Part shown: in pieces, positions 53,086 through 63,201 of the stretch
How the letters are laid out: the number at the start of each line of letters is the position of its first letter
Position numbering within the stretch: position 1 is the stretch's first letter
NCBI GenBank assembly: GCA_027484125.1
Contig: JAIXUI010000015.1
Span: 30,337-94,336, forward strand
DNA: 64,000 nt
DNA from: Bacteroidota bacterium
GTDB taxonomy: Bacteria; Bacteroidota; Bacteroidia; UBA7662; JAIXUI01
Direction: 5' to 3'
Notes under the pieces: generated by a model
Database searches by the model: none
The model's input: the letters and a program-made list of their open reading frames with translations, nothing else
What the model was told of the DNA's origin: nothing
Translations under genes and position numbers: made by a program

Positions 53086-53107
53086 GGCTCACTACGGTGA
53101 GCCTTTA
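53086..53107 (+). terminator. Probable intrinsic terminator
   Basis: Hairpin GGCTCAC-TACG-GTGAGCC (cUACGg loop) followed by TTTA, between convergent genes. Confidence 0.6.
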
Positions 53108-54310
53108 TTGTTTAATCCAAATCGATCGAAATTCTTGATAGCGGCCTGAATACTTAAGCAAATAACTGCCGGCAGCTAAGTCAGAAACCACCCAAACTCG
53201 GCTGGTTTGAGATGGATACTGTTTCACCAATTGACCCTGTAGGTTATAAACTGATAGTACCAAGGGTGTTTCTTCCGGAAGTCCGGAAGTCTGTATAATG
53301 GTGGTGCCAGGGTTGGGGAAAACCTGAATATGGAGAGGTTTCAATAAAGAACTAGCAACAAGGCTTCCATTCATCCAATAAGTGCCACTATCGCCCAAAA
53401 TCATCACCCTCCCATCTTGAAGCAGATGAATTCGATTACAATTGACGGTGGGGTTGAAAGTGCTATCAACCTGAAACGTTAAGCCTCGGTCGTAGCTTAT
53501 ACTCAGGGGAAACTGCCCCTGGCTTGCAAGTGCGAGCACCACACTGTCATTGATTATTTCTACCTCATCAATGGGATAGTCCAATCGGGTATTGCCCATC
53601 GTCCAGGTATTTCCCCGGTTGGTAGTATGAAAATTGACCCCACTTCGATATACAAGAATTCCCAAACTGTCATTAAAAAATTGAATGGCAGTGGTTTCCT
53701 GAATCATTCCGGTGGCAAGCATATTCACCATTTGCCAACTTTGGCCTTGGTCAGTGGTTTTGAACAAAGCACCATCATGATCGCCCACAAACCCAGTTAA
53801 GGTGTCCAGAAAGCAAGTTCGCCTCATAACACCTTGCCAAGAGGGAAGTCCAAGTGGGGCAAAAGAAAGGCCTCTATCACGACTCAACCATAATTGACTT
53901 AAAGTTGTATTTGAACCAACGGCGAAAAGATAGGGCGTACCCGAGACTGCTGAAATATCCTTGATACCAGGTGAACCAGGCCCGTTAACAGCAGTTACCC
54001 AAGTACGACCACTATCTATGCTTTTATACCAAAATTGTGGGCCTGTTTGGTTACCTGCCCAAATGGTAGTTCCCTGTCCTTGCACTAGCGCGGTTGTTTT
54101 TGCGGGAGCATTCGAGAAACCAGTCCAATTCAAGGTTGCATCTAAACTCAGCCAGGAATGGATAGAATCACTCAAAAGAATAGTTCCATTTCCAACCGCC
54201 AGTGCTTGGGTGAGTGAGGCTTGAACACCCAAGCGGTGTACCGTCCACTGCCCCCATACTGAAGTTGAGGATAGAAGAATAATCCAACATATAACAAGGC
54301 GAAATTTCAT
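53105..54310 (-). CDS. YCF48/BNR-repeat beta-propeller protein with T9SS C-terminal domain
   Basis: Asp-box repeats (SIDSGRTW, SRDRGLSF, TTDQGQSW, TTNRGNTW, SYDRGLTF); CTD VFPNP...YNLQGQLV...GSYLL. Confidence 0.82.
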   Translation of the reverse strand: MKFRLVICWIILLSSTSVWGQWTVHRLGVQASLTQALAVGNGTILLSDSIHSWLSLDATLNWTGFSNAPAKTTALVQGQGTTIWAGNQTGPQFWYKSIDSGRTWVTAVNGPGSPGIKDISAVSGTPYLFAVGSNTTLSQLWLSRDRGLSFAPLGLPSWQGVMRRTCFLDTLTGFVGDHDGALFKTTDQGQSWQMVNMLATGMIQETTAIQFFNDSLGILVYRSGVNFHTTNRGNTWTMGNTRLDYPIDEVEIINDSVVLALASQGQFPLSISYDRGLTFQVDSTFNPTVNCNRIHLLQDGRVMILGDSGTYWMNGSLVASSLLKPLHIQVFPNPGTTIIQTSGLPEETPLVLSVYNLQGQLVKQYPSQTSRVWVVSDLAAGSYLLKYSGRYQEFRSIWIKQ

Positions 54311-54379: not shown

Positions 54380-57300
54380 TCACTTCCAGCCTCCACCAAG
54401 TGCTCTGTAAAGATTTACCCTGTTTTGCATCAACCGATTATGGAGATTTACCCATTGAAGTTCAGCTTCCAAAACACTTTTTTGTGCAGTGATAATTTCC
54501 AAGTAGTTGGCGTATCCGGCCATATAAAGTTCTCTGCTGGTGCTAACGGCTTTAATCAATTCGTTGGTTTCCTTGAGTTTGAATTGTCTTGCTTCAAGAA
54601 GATTCAACTCATTTTTTAATCCTGCATTCACCTCACCAACCGCCACAAAAAGCGATTGTTGATAGTCAAGTAAGCTTTCCTGCGCCCGAACTATGGCCAT
54701 ACGCTTTTGGGCTTTTAACCTACCTTGTTGAAAGATGGGTGCCATAAAACCACCCAAAGTTCCGGCAGCTAGAGAAGCAGGATTCCACAATAAGGCAGGG
54801 TTGAAAGCATTAAAAGCCAGGTTTCCGTTTAAAGTTAAAGAAGGGTAAAAAAATCTTCTGGCTGCTTCAACATCAGCATTCGCTGCTGCTAATTGTGCTT
54901 CTGCTTGACGCAAATCTGGTCTTCTGCTTAGCAATTGTAATGGAATTCCAGCACGAATGTCGATAGCTGGGACTTCTAAAGGTTTTTGAGTCGGAATGTT
55001 GATGGTACCAGGAAACTGTCCGGTAATTTGGTAAAAAACTCTCTCAGCTTCTGCAATTTCAGTTTTTACCTGATAAAAGAGTGACTGGGTATTTAGCAAT
55101 TGAGCTTTAAACTGCTGTACCGCGAGTTCAGTTGCTTTTCCGGATTCTTTCATAGAAACCACCACTTCGAGCTCTTGTTCCTGAAGTTCGCGGTTTTTAT
55201 TCACTACTTCGAGTTCATAATACAGAGCCTGAAGTCCGTAATAGCGTTGAGCAACCTCTGCTACTAATCGCGTTTTCAACGCTTTAAGACCTTCTTCAGA
55301 AGCTAGCAAGCGAGCTTGTGAAGCTTTTTTAAGCTTCTTAAACTTCCCCCAAAGATCTGCTTCCCATTGGGTTCTAATTCCTAAAAACAGCTCCGTGTAA
55401 GGATCTGGAATACGTTGATTCGGAGTGATATCAGGTGATAAATTGGTATCAAAGTTTCCAACGCCATTCATGGTATATCTTCCGAATCGGTCTATGCTTC
55501 CGGTGGCATATCCTTGAAGAGCAGGAAGACGAGCATTTCTTGCAAGTAGCAACTCAGCCTGTGCCAGTAAAACCCGCTGGTTGGCTTTTTTATAGTCAAT
55601 GTTTCGGGTTAATGCTGAATCAATGAGGCTAATCAGGATGGAATCTTTGAAAAATACCTTCCAAGAAAGATCTCCCATCAATTGAGTAGTGTCAACAGAA
55701 GCCTTCGCCTGATATTGAGATGGAAGTGGAATGGTGTTTTTTAAATCTACATTATTGCCTGATTTACAGGCGCTAAGGCCAGATAAAACAACAAGAATAA
55801 CTAAACCCTTAACCGCATGTTGAATATCTGAATGCTTAGTTTTCTTTTTCCCTAAACCGGAAAAAATCACGTACAGTCCTGGAACCAGCAACAATCCGAT
55901 GATCGTCCCCATTAACATTCCCCCAGCTGCCGCTGTACCAATTGATCGATTTCCCATAGCACCGGCACCATCGGCAACAACCAATGGAATAAGTCCGGCA
56001 ATGAAGGCAAAGGAAGTCATGAGGATAGGCCGTAAACGACTGGTAGCACCTTCTTTCGCAGCTTCCAAAGCCGACAAGCCTTCTTTCTCTCGCTGAATAG
56101 CGAACTCTACAATCAGAATCGCATTCTTCGCCAAGAGTCCAATCAGCATGACGAAGGAAACCTGTGCAAAAATGTTGTTATCAAGTCCTGTTACTTTCAA
56201 CAAGAAGAATGCTCCGAATAATCCTGCCGGCATGGCCAGAAGAACGGGGAAGGGGAGCAAGAAACTCTCATATTGAGCCGACAGTAAAAGGTAAACAAAG
56301 AGCAGACATAGCAAGAAGATGCCGATGGCTTGGTTGCCGTTTAAAACCTGTTCGCGGGTCATGCCACTCCATTCATAATCAAAACCTTTTCCTAAAGTTT
56401 CATCTGCTACCTCCCGGATTGCATCCAGCGCTTCGCCACTGCTATAGCCAGGATTAACGTCGCCTGTCACAAATGCCGAAGTGTACATGTTGTAACGGGT
56501 AAGCTGCTCAGGGCCATAAACTCTTTCTAGCCTCAAAAAGGTTGAAAAGGGCACCATTTCTCCCACATTATTTCTAACATACAGGGATAAGATGTCTTCC
56601 GGTTTGGTGCGATACTGTGGTGCTGCCTGTACCATCACTTTGTACATCTGGCCAAAGCGGATGAAGTTGGTGGCGTAATAGCTTCCGAGTAGGGTTTGCA
56701 GGGTTTCCATGGCCTGATCTACTGTGACGCCTTTTTTCATGGCCATATCCTGATCTACATGAAGCAGATACTGAGGAAAAGTAGGGTCGAAGCTGGTAAA
56801 TGCCTCCCTGATTTCAGGTCTTTTTTTAAGCTTTTCAAGAAATTGTTGGGTGGTTTGCGCCATTTGATCCAGTTGGCCATTTCTGTTTTTATCCAGCAAC
56901 CTGAGCTCGAATCCTGAAGCATTACCAAAACCGGGAACGGTTGGTGGTGGAAAGTACTCTATATCAGCATCCTGAATGACTTCGCTTAAGCTATCTAACC
57001 GAAGAATTAACGCCTGTACGTTGTGTTCCCGTTCCTCCCAGCGCTTGAGGTTAATCATTCCCATGCCATAGGAAGCACCGGCAACCTCATTCACCAAGCT
57101 GTAACCAGCCAGAGAGGTGTAATTGTCTGCTTCAGGCAATTGCTTTACTACTGACCCAATCGCTTCCATCACTTGCTGGGTTCGCTCAACGGTTGCACCA
57201 GGAGGGGTAGTGACGTTGACATAAATCATACTTTGGTCTTCAGTCGGAATAAATCCTGCCGGCAACCAAGATCCCATCAAGCCGGCAGCAGCTGAGAATA

Positions 57301-58948
57301 CCACAAGCATGCCTACAATCAGCATCCTTCTTCCCGCAGTTCGTGCTACCAAACCACCATAACGCTGTTCGGTTTGGTCGTATCGCTTATTGAAACCACG
57401 GAAAAATCGTGTAAGCAATCCGGGCTTTTGTGAAGGAACTGCATGGTGCGATTTCATGATCAAGGCACATAGTGCAGGAGTAAGGGTCAGCGCGTTGATA
57501 CCTGAAATTCCGATAGAAACAGCAAGCGTAAGGGAGAACTGTCGATAAAATACCCCTACTGGGCCATCAAGAAAAGCAACTGGAATAAACACCGCCGACA
57601 TAACCAAAGTGATGGCCACAATAGCTGCTGAAATTTCTTTCATGGCCGCGACGGTAGCTTCCAATGGCTTCATGTGCTGTTCCGTCATTTTCACGTGAAC
57701 CGCCTCTACTACTACAATGGCGTCATCCACTACAATACCAATAGCTAATACTAAAGCGAATAGCGTCAATAAGTTGATAGAGAAGCCCATAGCCAACATA
57801 AAGGCTAAAGTTCCAATCAATGCAACCGGAACTGCTAATGCAGGAATCAGGGTAGAGCGCCAGTCTTGTAGGAAAAGGAAAATAACAATGAATACGAGGA
57901 TAAAAGCTTCTATCAAGGTTGCGATAACCTTGCTGATGGAAGCATCAAGAAAGCGGCTCACATCATAAGCGTAGTTGTAAGTCATGCCAGGAGGGAACTG
58001 CTCTTTTTTCAGTTCTTCCATCTTGGCTTTGATATTCTTGATCACGTCACGTGCGTTAGAACCCGGACGTTGTTTAATCATGATAGAGGCTGAAGGCTTG
58101 CCGTCGGTTTGCGATACCATGCCATAGCTCATGGTTCCAAACTCGATATCAGCCACGTCTTTCAGTTTGAGCAAAGACCCATCCGGTTGAGCACGAAGTA
58201 CGACTTCCTGATATTGGCCGGGAAGGTTCATCTTACCGGTGTAGCGCAAAACATATTGCAAATCTTGGCTCATTCGGCCACTGCTTTCGCCGGTTTTTCC
58301 TGGAGCTGCTTCTACGTTTTGTTTTCTTAAAGCCTCCAGAATTTCATCGGTACCTATTTTGTACGCGAGCATTCGGTCAGGCTTCAGCCAAACTCGCATG
58401 CTGTACTCTCGCTGGCCCATGATTTCCGCGAAGCCTACACCTTCAATACGCTTGAGTTCCTGAAGTACGTTGATGTCGGCAAAGTTGTAGATAAACTCTT
58501 CGTCCGCCTGGTCATCTTCACTGAACAGATTGAGGAACAACAGCATACTGTTTACCTCTTTTTCTGTTGTTACCCCTGCCTTGATTACCTCCTGCGGAAG
58601 TTCGTCAATCACCGTCATAACCCGGTTTTGAACGTTTACCGCCGCCACATCTGGGTCGGTACCAACTTTGAAATAAACTTGTATGAGGGTAATTCCATTG
58701 TTGGATGAAACACTGCTCATAGAAGTCATGCCAGGAACGCCATTGATGGCACGTTCTAAAGGTGTAGCAACCGCTTTGGTACAAACTTCAGCATTGGCAC
58801 CATTGTACTTGGCAGTTACTACCACCGAAGGTGGGACAATGTCAGGAAACTGGGTGATTGGAAGTTGGAACAACGCCAATACTCCCAGTAAAAGGATGAT
58901 TAAGGAGATTACCAGCGATAAAACCGGCCTTCTTACAAAAACTTCCAT
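54380..58948 (-). CDS. HAE1-family RND efflux permease fused to a NodT/TolC outer-membrane factor
   Basis: Residues ~1-1035 are AcrB-like (GIVVDDAIVVVE, LAKNAILIVE, RLRPILMTS). An internal lipobox LSA-C1061 follows, then an OMF (WEADLWGK, RRPDL, LYRALGGGW). Confidence 0.88.
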   Translation of the reverse strand: MEVFVRRPVLSLVISLIILLLGVLALFQLPITQFPDIVPPSVVVTAKYNGANAEVCTKAVATPLERAINGVPGMTSMSSVSSNNGITLIQVYFKVGTDPDVAAVNVQNRVMTVIDELPQEVIKAGVTTEKEVNSMLLFLNLFSEDDQADEEFIYNFADINVLQELKRIEGVGFAEIMGQREYSMRVWLKPDRMLAYKIGTDEILEALRKQNVEAAPGKTGESSGRMSQDLQYVLRYTGKMNLPGQYQEVVLRAQPDGSLLKLKDVADIEFGTMSYGMVSQTDGKPSASIMIKQRPGSNARDVIKNIKAKMEELKKEQFPPGMTYNYAYDVSRFLDASISKVIATLIEAFILVFIVIFLFLQDWRSTLIPALAVPVALIGTLAFMLAMGFSINLLTLFALVLAIGIVVDDAIVVVEAVHVKMTEQHMKPLEATVAAMKEISAAIVAITLVMSAVFIPVAFLDGPVGVFYRQFSLTLAVSIGISGINALTLTPALCALIMKSHHAVPSQKPGLLTRFFRGFNKRYDQTEQRYGGLVARTAGRRMLIVGMLVVFSAAAGLMGSWLPAGFIPTEDQSMIYVNVTTPPGATVERTQQVMEAIGSVVKQLPEADNYTSLAGYSLVNEVAGASYGMGMINLKRWEEREHNVQALILRLDSLSEVIQDADIEYFPPPTVPGFGNASGFELRLLDKNRNGQLDQMAQTTQQFLEKLKKRPEIREAFTSFDPTFPQYLLHVDQDMAMKKGVTVDQAMETLQTLLGSYYATNFIRFGQMYKVMVQAAPQYRTKPEDILSLYVRNNVGEMVPFSTFLRLERVYGPEQLTRYNMYTSAFVTGDVNPGYSSGEALDAIREVADETLGKGFDYEWSGMTREQVLNGNQAIGIFLLCLLFVYLLLSAQYESFLLPFPVLLAMPAGLFGAFFLLKVTGLDNNIFAQVSFVMLIGLLAKNAILIVEFAIQREKEGLSALEAAKEGATSRLRPILMTSFAFIAGLIPLVVADGAGAMGNRSIGTAAAGGMLMGTIIGLLLVPGLYVIFSGLGKKKTKHSDIQHAVKGLVILVVLSGLSACKSGNNVDLKNTIPLPSQYQAKASVDTTQLMGDLSWKVFFKDSILISLIDSALTRNIDYKKANQRVLLAQAELLLARNARLPALQGYATGSIDRFGRYTMNGVGNFDTNLSPDITPNQRIPDPYTELFLGIRTQWEADLWGKFKKLKKASQARLLASEEGLKALKTRLVAEVAQRYYGLQALYYELEVVNKNRELQEQELEVVVSMKESGKATELAVQQFKAQLLNTQSLFYQVKTEIAEAERVFYQITGQFPGTINIPTQKPLEVPAIDIRAGIPLQLLSRRPDLRQAEAQLAAANADVEAARRFFYPSLTLNGNLAFNAFNPALLWNPASLAAGTLGGFMAPIFQQGRLKAQKRMAIVRAQESLLDYQQSLFVAVGEVNAGLKNELNLLEARQFKLKETNELIKAVSTSRELYMAGYANYLEIITAQKSVLEAELQWVNLHNRLMQNRVNLYRALGGGWK

Positions 58949-58951
58949 GAA

Positions 58952-60088
58952 TTATCGCTTGAAAGAGTTTGAAAAAGCTACAGCACGACTTTTTACAACT
59001 GGAGAAATGCGCTGGCCTTCTTTCAAATTTTGAGTTCCCTCAATTACGATGGTTTCACCGGTATTCAATCCACTTTCAACCACGTAAAGCCCACCGAGGC
59101 GCATCAGTGGGCTAAATGCGCGCAGTTGAAGGCTGCTATCCTTTTGAACTACGAACACAAAGTTCTTGTCCTGAACTTCGAATACTGCTTTTTGAGGAAT
59201 CATGAGCGCTTTTTTCAACGTTCTACTGAGCCTGACTTTGCCACTGCTACCATGTTTGAGGAGTTTTTCCGGATTCTTAAATCTGGCTCGGAAGGCTATC
59301 GAACCGGTATTTCGGTCGATTTCTCCCTCCATGGTTTCAATTCTACCATCGTAAGGATAGGTATGTCCATCAGCAGTGTTGAGCTTAACTTTGCTTTTAC
59401 TTTCTGCAGGGTCTCCGCTATCGTTTCTACCCCAAGCCAAGTAGTCGTTTTCTGATACCGGAAAATAAGCAAACACCTCTTCAACATCTGATAAGGAGGT
59501 CAGTAGGGTTCCCGATTCAACTAAGCTGCCGAGTCGTAAGGGCAATCGGTCGATGGTGCCGGAAAAAGGAGACGTAATTTTGCAAAACTTCAACATCAGT
59601 CGTGCTTCATCAAGCGAAGCCATAGCTTCCATAGACCGTGCCTGCTGAACTTGCACTTTCGCCTCTGCCAAATGCACTTCAGTAGGACTCACAATGTTCT
59701 TGGCTAAGAGGCTTTTTAATCGATCAACCTCCACTTGGGCAGCTTTTACTTCTGCTAGAGCTGAGCGATAGGATGCTTCGGCTTTCTCTAAGGCTAACCT
59801 AAAGGGTGCTTCGTTAAGCTGAAACAGGACTTGACCCTCTTTTACAAACTGGCCTTCGTCCACTAAAACACGCTCCAGATAACCAGATACTCTTGATCGT
59901 ATCTCCACGTTTCTGCGTGCTTCTATGTGCGCTACGAAAGCACGCTCCACCAACGTATCAATGCTGGTAATGGTGTAAACAGGATATTGATCCGGATTCT
60001 CACCGGTATTTTCTGCAGAATTGTTGCAGGATGTTAAAAAAAGAAATGAAAGGGCAAAAACCCAAAGAGAAATTTGCTGTAAAAACAT
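58952..60088 (-). CDS. RND periplasmic adaptor (MFP) lipoprotein
   Basis: Lipobox LTSC; motifs IRSRVSGYL, VKEGQVLF, ITSPFSG and IPQKAV. Start at MFLQQ (60088). Confidence 0.92.
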   Translation of the reverse strand: MFLQQISLWVFALSFLFLTSCNNSAENTGENPDQYPVYTITSIDTLVERAFVAHIEARRNVEIRSRVSGYLERVLVDEGQFVKEGQVLFQLNEAPFRLALEKAEASYRSALAEVKAAQVEVDRLKSLLAKNIVSPTEVHLAEAKVQVQQARSMEAMASLDEARLMLKFCKITSPFSGTIDRLPLRLGSLVESGTLLTSLSDVEEVFAYFPVSENDYLAWGRNDSGDPAESKSKVKLNTADGHTYPYDGRIETMEGEIDRNTGSIAFRARFKNPEKLLKHGSSGKVRLSRTLKKALMIPQKAVFEVQDKNFVFVVQKDSSLQLRAFSPLMRLGGLYVVESGLNTGETIVIEGTQNLKEGQRISPVVKSRAVAFSNSFKR

Positions 60089-60120
60089 GAAGAATTTTGA
60101 GGTTAAAGGACAACAACGAA

Positions 60121-60462
60121 TTAGCAAAATGCCATCGTCCGTGGAGGTGGAGATTCTGTTCCACCATAACCCCAATTCAAATACTGTAAATAGTCCCGAT
60201 TGGTTTGCTGAAAGATAAAATTGAAGGCTAGCAATGGCAAATTGTCAGAGAAAAAATCAGTTAATAGTTGAAATTCTTGCTCTTCTATATGATCACTTTC
60301 TTCTTGCTCTTCCATGATGTCTGCTACTTCAATAACCTCGAAAGAAAAGGTGTTTTCAGGAAGTGAACTCAATATAACAAATCCAGTAATAGCCATTAAC
60401 CAGGCTAGTACGAATAAGCTTGACAGGGAATATTTGAGCTTTTTGAAGTTTACAACGTGCAT
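60121..60462 (-). CDS. Small membrane protein / putative leader ORF of the efflux operon
   Basis: N-terminal TM helix, acidic tract and C-terminal SPPPR; ends 32 nt before the MFP start. Confidence 0.6.
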   Translation of the reverse strand: MHVVNFKKLKYSLSSLFVLAWLMAITGFVILSSLPENTFSFEVIEVADIMEEQEESDHIEEQEFQLLTDFFSDNLPLLAFNFIFQQTNRDYLQYLNWGYGGTESPPPRTMAFC

Positions 60463-62332: not shown

Positions 62333-63046
62333 TCAGGCTTGCGCACTAAGCACCAGCTTGAATACCCAGATTTCGAGAATCTCACTCACAGGCAAATCGT
62401 AGGGAGCAAATTCCGGATTCTGGGAAACCATGAGCAGGTGGAGCGGGTCTTGTGGCTTTCGATATACCAGCTTAAATACAATCCCTTCCGAGCGTGTGAG
62501 TACCACGCAACGTGTTCCGTCTTTCAGGCGATTCCAGTCGTCTAGGTATTCAGAAATGACCCATGCCCCGGAGGGAATGGGCAGCATAGAATCGCCACTG
62601 AGTTGAAAACTGCGATACTTTCGTTGCTTGCTCAAGAAAGGCAGTTGAAACCGGGGTAAGTCGCCAATAAACTCCGGATCGGAATAGCCGCTGGCGTAAC
62701 CCGCTCGTGCTTTTTCACTCACTACTTCAATGTATTCCTGCTCTTCTGCGTCAACGGTAGTGGCGAGCACCCTGAGCTGGCTGCCGCTCATGTGGCGGAC
62801 AGGGTCGAACGTGAGCTCCTGTAGCTTTTTCTCCGATAAGCCTTGCAGAGCAGTCCGCAGCAAATGGTCCGCGCTGATGGAAAAAAAGTCAGACAACTTC
62901 ACCAAGGCCTCTAAGGTAGGCTTGATGGTGCCTTCGTAACCCGCTAGCTGGGAACGGCTGAACCCCATTCTGGCCGCGGCTTCCGCTTGTGTGAGCTTCA
63001 GTCGCTGGCGCAAAAAGCGAATATTGGCATGAATTACTTGACTCAT
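62333..63046 (-). CDS. XRE HTH - S24 peptidase repressor (non-canonical LexA/CI-like)
   Basis: HTH NIRFLRQ..LTQAEAA, Ala-Gly site ARAGY, catalytic GDSM and VFK; TATATTTG box at 63072-63065. Confidence 0.87.
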   Translation of the reverse strand: MSQVIHANIRFLRQRLKLTQAEAAARMGFSRSQLAGYEGTIKPTLEALVKLSDFFSISADHLLRTALQGLSEKKLQELTFDPVRHMSGSQLRVLATTVDAEEQEYIEVVSEKARAGYASGYSDPEFIGDLPRFQLPFLSKQRKYRSFQLSGDSMLPIPSGAWVISEYLDDWNRLKDGTRCVVLTRSEGIVFKLVYRKPQDPLHLLMVSQNPEFAPYDLPVSEILEIWVFKLVLSAQA

Positions 63047-63201
63047 GGCTGTTTGTTTGATTATCAAATATAAGACTATTTAATTAACAACTCTCTGTAT
63101 AACCTTTTTTAATTCACTTAAATGTGGATAAGTTTTGAAATGATGAAAATTCATAATGTCTATATTGTATGAATAATAATGTCAATATAACAAACAATCA
63201 G

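Follow-up and report, generated by a model that had tools for sequence, protein, structure and literature searches.

An HAE1 efflux permease in one frame with its outer-membrane factor: a candidate polyprotein with an internal lipoprotein signal peptide in a freshwater Bacteroidota bacterium

Here we describe a locus that encodes an efflux permease of the resistance-nodulation-division (RND) type and an outer-membrane factor (OMF) in a single open reading frame (ORF). It lies in a stretch of 64,000 nucleotides, hereafter the window, from a freshwater bacterium of the Bacteroidota (assembly GCA_027484125.1, contig JAIXUI010000015.1, positions 30,337 to 94,336). According to the ORF listing and its translation, 54380..58948 on the minus strand is one ORF with an ATG start, encoding 1522 residues followed by a stop codon. 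The gene of a periplasmic adaptor, a membrane fusion protein, ends with its stop 3 nt upstream of the fused ORF on the same strand. The locus is best explained as a two-gene efflux operon: the first gene encodes a lipoprotein adaptor, and the second joins, by natural read-through, an HAE1 permease and its cognate NodT/OprM-type OMF. The joint itself, as far as its residues tell, is best explained as the basic C-terminal tail of the permease running straight into the OMF's own signal peptide minus its start codon. The parts of the operon are as follows.

55850..58948, minus strand: HAE1 RND permease part, residues 1-1033, with the last transmembrane helix (TM12) at about residues 1006-1033 (TIGR00915, ACR_tran, proton-relay alignments, hydropathy)
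55808..55849, minus strand: basic cytoplasmic loop, residues 1034-1047 (GKKKTKHSDIQHAV-K), read from the translation as the RND tail plus the n-region of a putative internal signal peptide
55769..55807, minus strand: hydrophobic region (h-region) and lipobox, residues 1048-1060 (GLVILVVLSG-LSA), 13 uncharged residues, the proposed 13th membrane-spanning segment
55766..55768, minus strand: codon of Cys1061 (TGT on the minus strand), the proposed diacylglyceryl acceptor and residue 1 of the mature OMF (42 of 42 aligned sequences)
55667..55765, minus strand: N-terminal tether of the OMF, residues 1062-1094 (KSGNNVDLKN...MGDLS), the tether being of the same length in fused and split forms
54383..55666, minus strand: OMF core, residues 1095-1522, with two OEP repeats and the end ...LYRALGGGWK (TIGR01845, matches to solved structures in the PDB)
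58952..60088, minus strand: periplasmic adaptor, first gene of the two-gene operon (TIGR01730 RND_mfp, 266.9 bits; Pfam HlyD_D23)

Both halves of the fused protein belong to known families. In a Pfam profile search ACR_tran covers residues 2-1029 with 1016 bits, and two OEP stretches follow further on. Membership of the HAE1 family is given by the NCBIfam model TIGR00915, which matches residues 2-1042 with 1062.2 bits (cut-off 940.35), and membership of the NodT/OprM-type OMFs by TIGR01845 (outer_NodT), which matches residues 1058-1520 over profile positions 7-460 of 460 with 235.4 bits (cut-off 210.05). The fused protein is the sole match to TIGR01845 above cut-off in the whole genome. An earlier note on this DNA had read the single 1522-residue ORF as a complete HAE1 permease and a complete NodT/OprM OMF, and the ORF listing, Pfam and NCBIfam all agree with that reading. 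The same note had called the proton-relay motifs intact, which the alignments with solved chains confirm. The relay residues are taken to be the Asp-Asp of TM4, the Lys of TM10 and the Arg and Thr of TM11. VVDDAIVVVE, with the Asp-Asp, is identical at these residues to 6ows_A and 9j3d_J (each an 'Efflux pump membrane transporter'), and the other two stretches, LLAKNAILIVEFA and RLRPILMTS, are matched identically by the MexB-type chains 22xk_B (MexBYB) and 3w9i_A (MexB). The C-terminal part of the permease matches MexB chains at 7e-37. The OMF part matches nearly full chains of SilC (9rmm, 4.7e-44), CusC (3pik, 1.2e-42) and OprM (1wp1, 2.7e-37), and also OprJ, OprN, MtrE and CmeC across nearly their whole lengths.

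The translation runs without a stop through the junction (PGLYVIFSGLGKKKTKHSDIQHAVKGLVILVVLSGLSA-C1061-KSGNNVDLKN), and the joint reads GLGKKKTKHSDIQHAVKGLVILVVLSGLSA-C-KSGNN. After TM12 the linker consists of GKKKTK...K, then GLVILVVLSG, then LSA, then Cys1061, which is the anatomy of a signal peptidase II signal with KKKTK...K as n-region, GLVILVVLSG as h-region and L-S-A-C as lipobox. The consensus [LV][ASTVI][GAS]C, as given in an excerpt of PMC8048626, is fitted by LSAC. Lipoprotein signal peptides are N-terminal in location; this one begins after residue 1033. By hydropathy alone, the predicted segments sit at the helix positions of the RND family, with one extra at residues 1044-1063. 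The C-terminus of RND permeases is cytoplasmic, and therefore the basic loop is expected inside, the hydrophobic run would lie N-in/C-out, and the OMF part would be exported. The K-rich loop after TM12, the 13-residue uncharged run and L-S-A-C thus fit the topology of a 13th helix that is also an internal signal. The window protein contains only 4 Cys, and LSAC, its single strict lipobox match, is sited exactly on the domain boundary. In 109 fused proteins from the homolog search described below, the strict pattern [LVI][ASTVI][GAS]C is found at the junction 50 times and never at any other place. A lipobox by chance is excluded by these counts.

The OMF part has no start codon of its own and is not a free-standing precursor; its frame is continuous from the permease. 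Between TM12 and Cys1061 there are zero in-frame ATG, GTG or TTG codons, and the next Met, M1091, lies downstream of the internal signal peptide. The translation thereby agrees with the earlier placing of the Cys1061 codon at 55768-55766 and with the earlier claim of a linker that has no in-frame Met. An internal translation start, by which a codon within the linker would initiate a separate OMF and the long frame would be incidental, is for these reasons very improbable. In the other genome of the genus the only GTG and TTG codons fall within the hydrophobic run. A suitably placed Met, the one point in favour of such a start, occurs in about 13 of 109 homologs (as read from the list) and is absent from most; it is probably a relic of the old OMF start.

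The junction is found in independent DNA. The sole other genome of the genus has a 1524-residue open frame whose RND part is 93% and whose OMF core is 80% identical, and a third assembly (P0003) is 88% identical across residues 900-1300. The stretch 55500-56100 is present in freshwater metagenomes of nine studies, and DNA contigs of three studies cover the junction within it in one piece, with no indel and no stop. Across these contigs we observe 7 substitutions, 5 of them synonymous and the others I1104V and V991I, which leave the linker unaffected; an eighth, synonymous and outside the linker, was seen only in an RNA contig. Reads with an indel or a stop in the linker had been named as a check on the fusion; independent assemblies have neither, and the junction stands. 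Split pairs that are one stop away from fusion are common, as would suit an artefact or a decaying gene whose stop was lost through sequencing error or recent mutation and whose product is useless. We give this explanation next to no weight, since four independent assemblies concur, the population variants are mostly synonymous, and named Chitinophaga and Sphingobacterium genomes contain large clades that are fused throughout.

Using residues 900-1300 as the query of a protein search, we took the best 120 database matches. Both Pfam domains are present in 120 of 120, 110 of the 120 are at least 1450 residues long, and identities range from 44 to 100%; named genomes of Chitinophaga, Flavitalea, Puia and Sphingobacterium are among the sources. 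Full-length homologs of about 1500 residues, and the conservation of the internal lipobox Cys in them, were two further checks proposed with the original reading, and both came out in its favour. After removal of the window's own entry, 108 full-length homologs were counted, and a linker Cys following a K/R-rich stretch and a hydrophobic run is found in every one (108/108). The residue before this Cys is G, S or A in 106 of them and Q or N in the remaining two. Cys makes up 0.36% of the residues in the fused homologs, and the median net charge in the 15 residues preceding the h-region is +5 in the 109 fused proteins. In a library clustered at 50%, 6 of the 150 best representatives span the junction, all 6 with a lipobox, and the remaining 144 are free OMFs or fragments. 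Within the genus, identity is 31-48% in the linker versus 93-97% in the RND part. The linker thus evolves as signal peptides do, its sequence diverging and its features persisting.

The residues after the Cys bear on where the OMF would end up. A surface lipoprotein export signal after the Cys is described, in an excerpt of PMC5080379, as K-(D/E)2, Q-A-(D/E)2 or an S-D-D-D-D-like sequence. The window has C-K-S-G-N-N, and 106 of the 109 fused proteins have no D or E at +2 to +5. There being no acidic export signal, the OMF is therefore expected to face the periplasm in the outer membrane, as is usual for OMFs.

We found that fused and split forms of the gene pair occur side by side in related bacteria. 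Among 41 relatives, the pair is fused only in the window's genome and in the other genome of the genus; genomes of the same order have a permease of about 1052-1071 residues and then a separate OMF. In one relative (G019) the split pair shares one frame, reading ...KPYHYE-stop-A-MLNKTSQGAVILLLLLIASC. Among 401 sampled genomes of the class, at least 6 genomes from three families are truly fused as read from the DNA, a lower bound since 57 weaker matches are not included, and nine more pairs share one frame with a single stop between the genes (ten including the relatives). Open-frame lengths had pointed to 12 fused genomes, six of which (G201, G372, G074, G168, G082 and G369) are split pairs when the DNA is read. 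A scan of genome contigs covering 5 loci found only the same-genus locus fused, and no fusion was seen outside Bacteroidota. Each of 36 distinct split orthologs has at its start a Met, then K/R, a hydrophobic run and finally a lipobox Cys. Cys1061 aligns with this Cys, and across the 42 aligned sequences (6 fused, 36 split) the position never varies. The window's genome also has a paralogous split pair (G000:C123:227-4632, minus strand), in which the permease ends ...GKFRKERRQS and a NodT-like OMF with its own signal peptide, MIRLACFFLLVLGFAAC, lies in another frame and overlaps the permease end.

One lineage displays the two parts of the linker separately. The fused ORFs L058 (from G303, 1569 residues) and L059 (from G064, 1552 residues) have an acidic stretch of about 60 residues ahead of the basic, hydrophobic and lipobox segment, and in their split sister L060 the separate permease terminates in the same acidic tail; on the RND tree the fused and split genes of this lineage are sisters with a support of 97. 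Because the split sister permease ends in the same tail, the linker of this lineage is a permease tail followed by an OMF signal peptide.

The fused and split states are interleaved in the phylogenies. To account for the fused/split label, a FastTree OMF tree requires 9 changes (at least 6 forced by the starred branches), an IQ-TREE OMF tree 7 (at least 5 forced) and the RND tree, which has 52 rows, likewise 7 (at least 4 forced). The fused rows were collected by a protein search restricted by length and the split ones from samples of genomes, and because the two were sampled differently these counts are rough; the interleaving is clear all the same. Such frequent switching would be hard to understand unless both states gave the same products, and therefore both likely yield the same two mature proteins. 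The earlier note had expected the fusion to yield the two components at a fixed 1:1 stoichiometry. As a driving force this finds no support, given that the states interconvert and the fused state is in the minority in both the 401-genome sample and the clustered library. The pattern instead looks as though a stop codon were lost and gained in a near-neutral way.

If the signal were not cut, the hydrophobic run would remain as an anchor, and the OMF would reach the outer membrane still joined to the permease in an envelope-spanning chain. The continuous and conserved reading frame is compatible with such a permanent tether, the tether of about 49 residues would be long if extended, and our literature search found no precedent for the processing of an internal lipobox. 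We nevertheless consider it unlikely. A plain 13th transmembrane anchor needs neither the invariant Cys (108/108) nor the small residue before it ([GSA]-C in 106). The hydrophobic run is also shorter than a typical membrane helix: the uncharged run before the Cys is 13 residues in the window, and its median is 14 both for the 6 fused loci and for the 36 split precursors and 16 for 106 homologs from the database, so that on its residue count it is of signal-peptide length. Counted from alignments, the tether, taken between the Cys and a conserved Ala in the first helix of the OMF, has a median of 49 residues in fused forms (n=40) and 48 in split forms (n=36; Mann-Whitney p=0.10). It is not longer when fused, and the fused forms thus show no adaptation to a reach that starts at the inner membrane. 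Repeated switches between split and fused states would, moreover, alternate two very different architectures.

The window's genome holds a second kind of RND-OMF fusion, outside the window, and the mention in the earlier note of CzcA-OMF fusions in Bacteroidota thereby proved correct. G000:C78:5992-10323 (L018:523-4824, plus strand) encodes a 1434-residue CusA/CzcA permease (TIGR00914) with a C-terminal OEP domain. Its linker, RGRSSKPTMKTVLPVVLLLMFSSPLMA-QTPLSLEQ, contains an internal signal of the signal peptidase I type that ends ...PLMA-QTP, with Gln at +1. This fusion is widespread, with 113 of the 120 best matches at least 1380 residues long and relatives in Pedobacter, Chryseobacterium and Epilithonimonas, among other genera. 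Among 85 distinct CzcA-OEP linkers caught by an anchor pattern, [AGS]-Q follows the hydrophobic run in all 85, versus 46% of controls (1700 random 52-residue windows), and small-x-small-Q is found in 60, versus 16% of controls. Gln at +1 is a hallmark of cleaved signal peptidase I substrates in Bacteroidetes according to an excerpt of PMC5837995, which makes no mention of fusions. Each kind of fused OMF thus keeps the kind of cleavable signal that its free relatives have, and for this reason the CzcA-type fusion lends independent support to cleavage.

The same comparison raises the possibility that the HAE1 fusion is cut outside the lipoprotein pathway, by signal peptidase I or another envelope protease, with the Cys conserved for some other reason; the CzcA-type fusions of the same genome do appear to use a site of the signal peptidase I type. 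The residues at the joint make this quite unlikely. Signal peptidase I prefers small residues at -3 and -1, and L-S-A before Cys1061, with Leu at -3, fits a lipobox and is a poor site for that enzyme. In the alignment the Cys falls on the one that is lipidated in free precursors of the NodT family, and TIGR01845 is a family of lipoprotein OMFs.

Altogether, we favour a polyprotein that is cut by Lgt and LspA into a pump with 13 helices and a normal lipidated channel, and we put the probability of this reading, in which the cleavage is deduced from conserved features, at roughly 0.7. A little more cautiously, we think it likely that a lipobox situated over 1000 residues from the N-terminus of a polytopic protein is accepted by Lgt and LspA, which so give rise to a 13-helix permease and a lipidated outer-membrane channel, two halves of one chain in different membranes. 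The chain would be inserted co-translationally, with the K-rich loop after TM12 remaining cytoplasmic and the 13-residue hydrophobic run entering the membrane N-in/C-out as a 13th segment. The 462-residue OMF part would be translocated to the periplasm, like the permease's two large periplasmic loops. Lgt would then add diacylglycerol to Cys1061, and LspA would cut between Ala1060 and Cys1061. The signal peptide would stay on the permease (about 1060 residues) as a covalent 13th helix, while the lipidated OMF (462 residues) would pass to the Lol pathway and, facing the periplasm, assemble in the outer membrane. An ordinary split operon would give the same end products, and the fusion could be gained or reverted through the loss or gain of a single stop codon. 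The genome, which measures 3.33 Mb and is 99.7% complete, contains lspA, lgt and lolA genes.

Several observations weigh against cleavage by Lgt and LspA. All Lgt and LspA substrates known to us carry N-terminal signal peptides, and an excerpt of PMC8048626 likewise describes these substrates with N-terminal signal peptides. The strict consensus fits only 50 of the 109 fused proteins, the others being relaxed at -3 and -2, and in two the residue at -1 is Q or N. The fused state is in the minority, with at least 6 of the 401 sampled genomes. A tether of about 49 residues could, if fully extended, bridge a long distance, and the equal lengths in fused and split forms only weaken the case for a permanent tether. 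Finally, a 332-nt metatranscriptome contig (run X17, depth 3) that bridges the junction shows one additional T behind 55736, within codon 1071; this T is absent from the three DNA assemblies and is probably an error.

The operon fits its surroundings in base composition, and in a scan for a sigma-70 promoter and a terminator the operon gave scores no better than those of shuffles. The adaptor ORF as listed (58952-60175, minus strand) begins at a TTG at 60175, and the true start is probably the ATG at 60088, which is followed by a predicted lipoprotein signal peptide and lipobox (MFLQQISLWVFALSFLFLTSC). Directly downstream of the pump gene, 53105-54310 on the minus strand encodes a protein of 401 residues with BNR/Asp-box repeats and a C-terminal sorting domain of the type IX secretion system, a feature that assigns the organism to Bacteroidota. 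At 62333-63067, also on the minus strand, lies the gene of a 244-residue protein with an HTH_3 domain and a weak match to Peptidase_S24, the architecture of a LexA/CI-like repressor. The genome as a whole encodes six full-length RND permeases, two of which are fused to an OMF.

Known systems resemble parts of this arrangement. The split MexAB-OprM pump of Pseudomonas aeruginosa has the same three components, the same gene order of adaptor, permease and OMF and the same expected end products. In the window, unlike in MexAB-OprM, the permease and the OMF share one frame, and the start-less OMF signal peptide comes after residue 1033 of a polytopic protein. The closest solved OMFs, CusC and SilC, are NodT-family lipoproteins like the OMF part here; they are made as free precursors and serve metal (HME) pumps, whereas the partner here is an HAE1-type permease (TIGR00915). 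CzcA-OEP fusions likewise join an RND permease to an OMF by a basic loop and a hydrophobic run, and differ in their RND family (TIGR00914), in a non-lipoprotein OMF and in an internal signal that ends A-x-A/Q for signal peptidase I and has no lipobox. In the cytochrome b-c1 polyprotein of Bradyrhizobium (FbcH), a polytopic inner-membrane protein is followed by an exported partner, and an internal signal peptide is cut after insertion. FbcH is cut by signal peptidase I and both of its products stay at the inner membrane, whereas the cut proposed here would be made by LspA after lipidation and the second product would leave for the outer membrane. A literature search that reached few subscription journals, and neither supplements nor TCDB, returned excerpts with no description of an RND-OMF fusion or of an internal lipobox.

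The function of the pump is ordinary and of the MexAB-OprM type. What sets it apart is the biogenesis we propose, via an internal, start-less lipoprotein signal peptide in a polytopic protein. NCBI labels the fused proteins of about 1500 residues only as 'efflux RND transporter permease subunit', and because this name covers the permease alone, the outer-membrane channel is missed in efflux inventories of Chitinophaga, Sphingobacterium and their relatives. If the proposed processing is true, the lipoprotein pathway would not need an N-terminal signal, and the substrate rule of Lgt and LspA, an antibiotic target, would widen from N-terminal to internal signals. The fused gene would then be a simple polyprotein route by which one chain yields an inner- and an outer-membrane subunit of the same machine.

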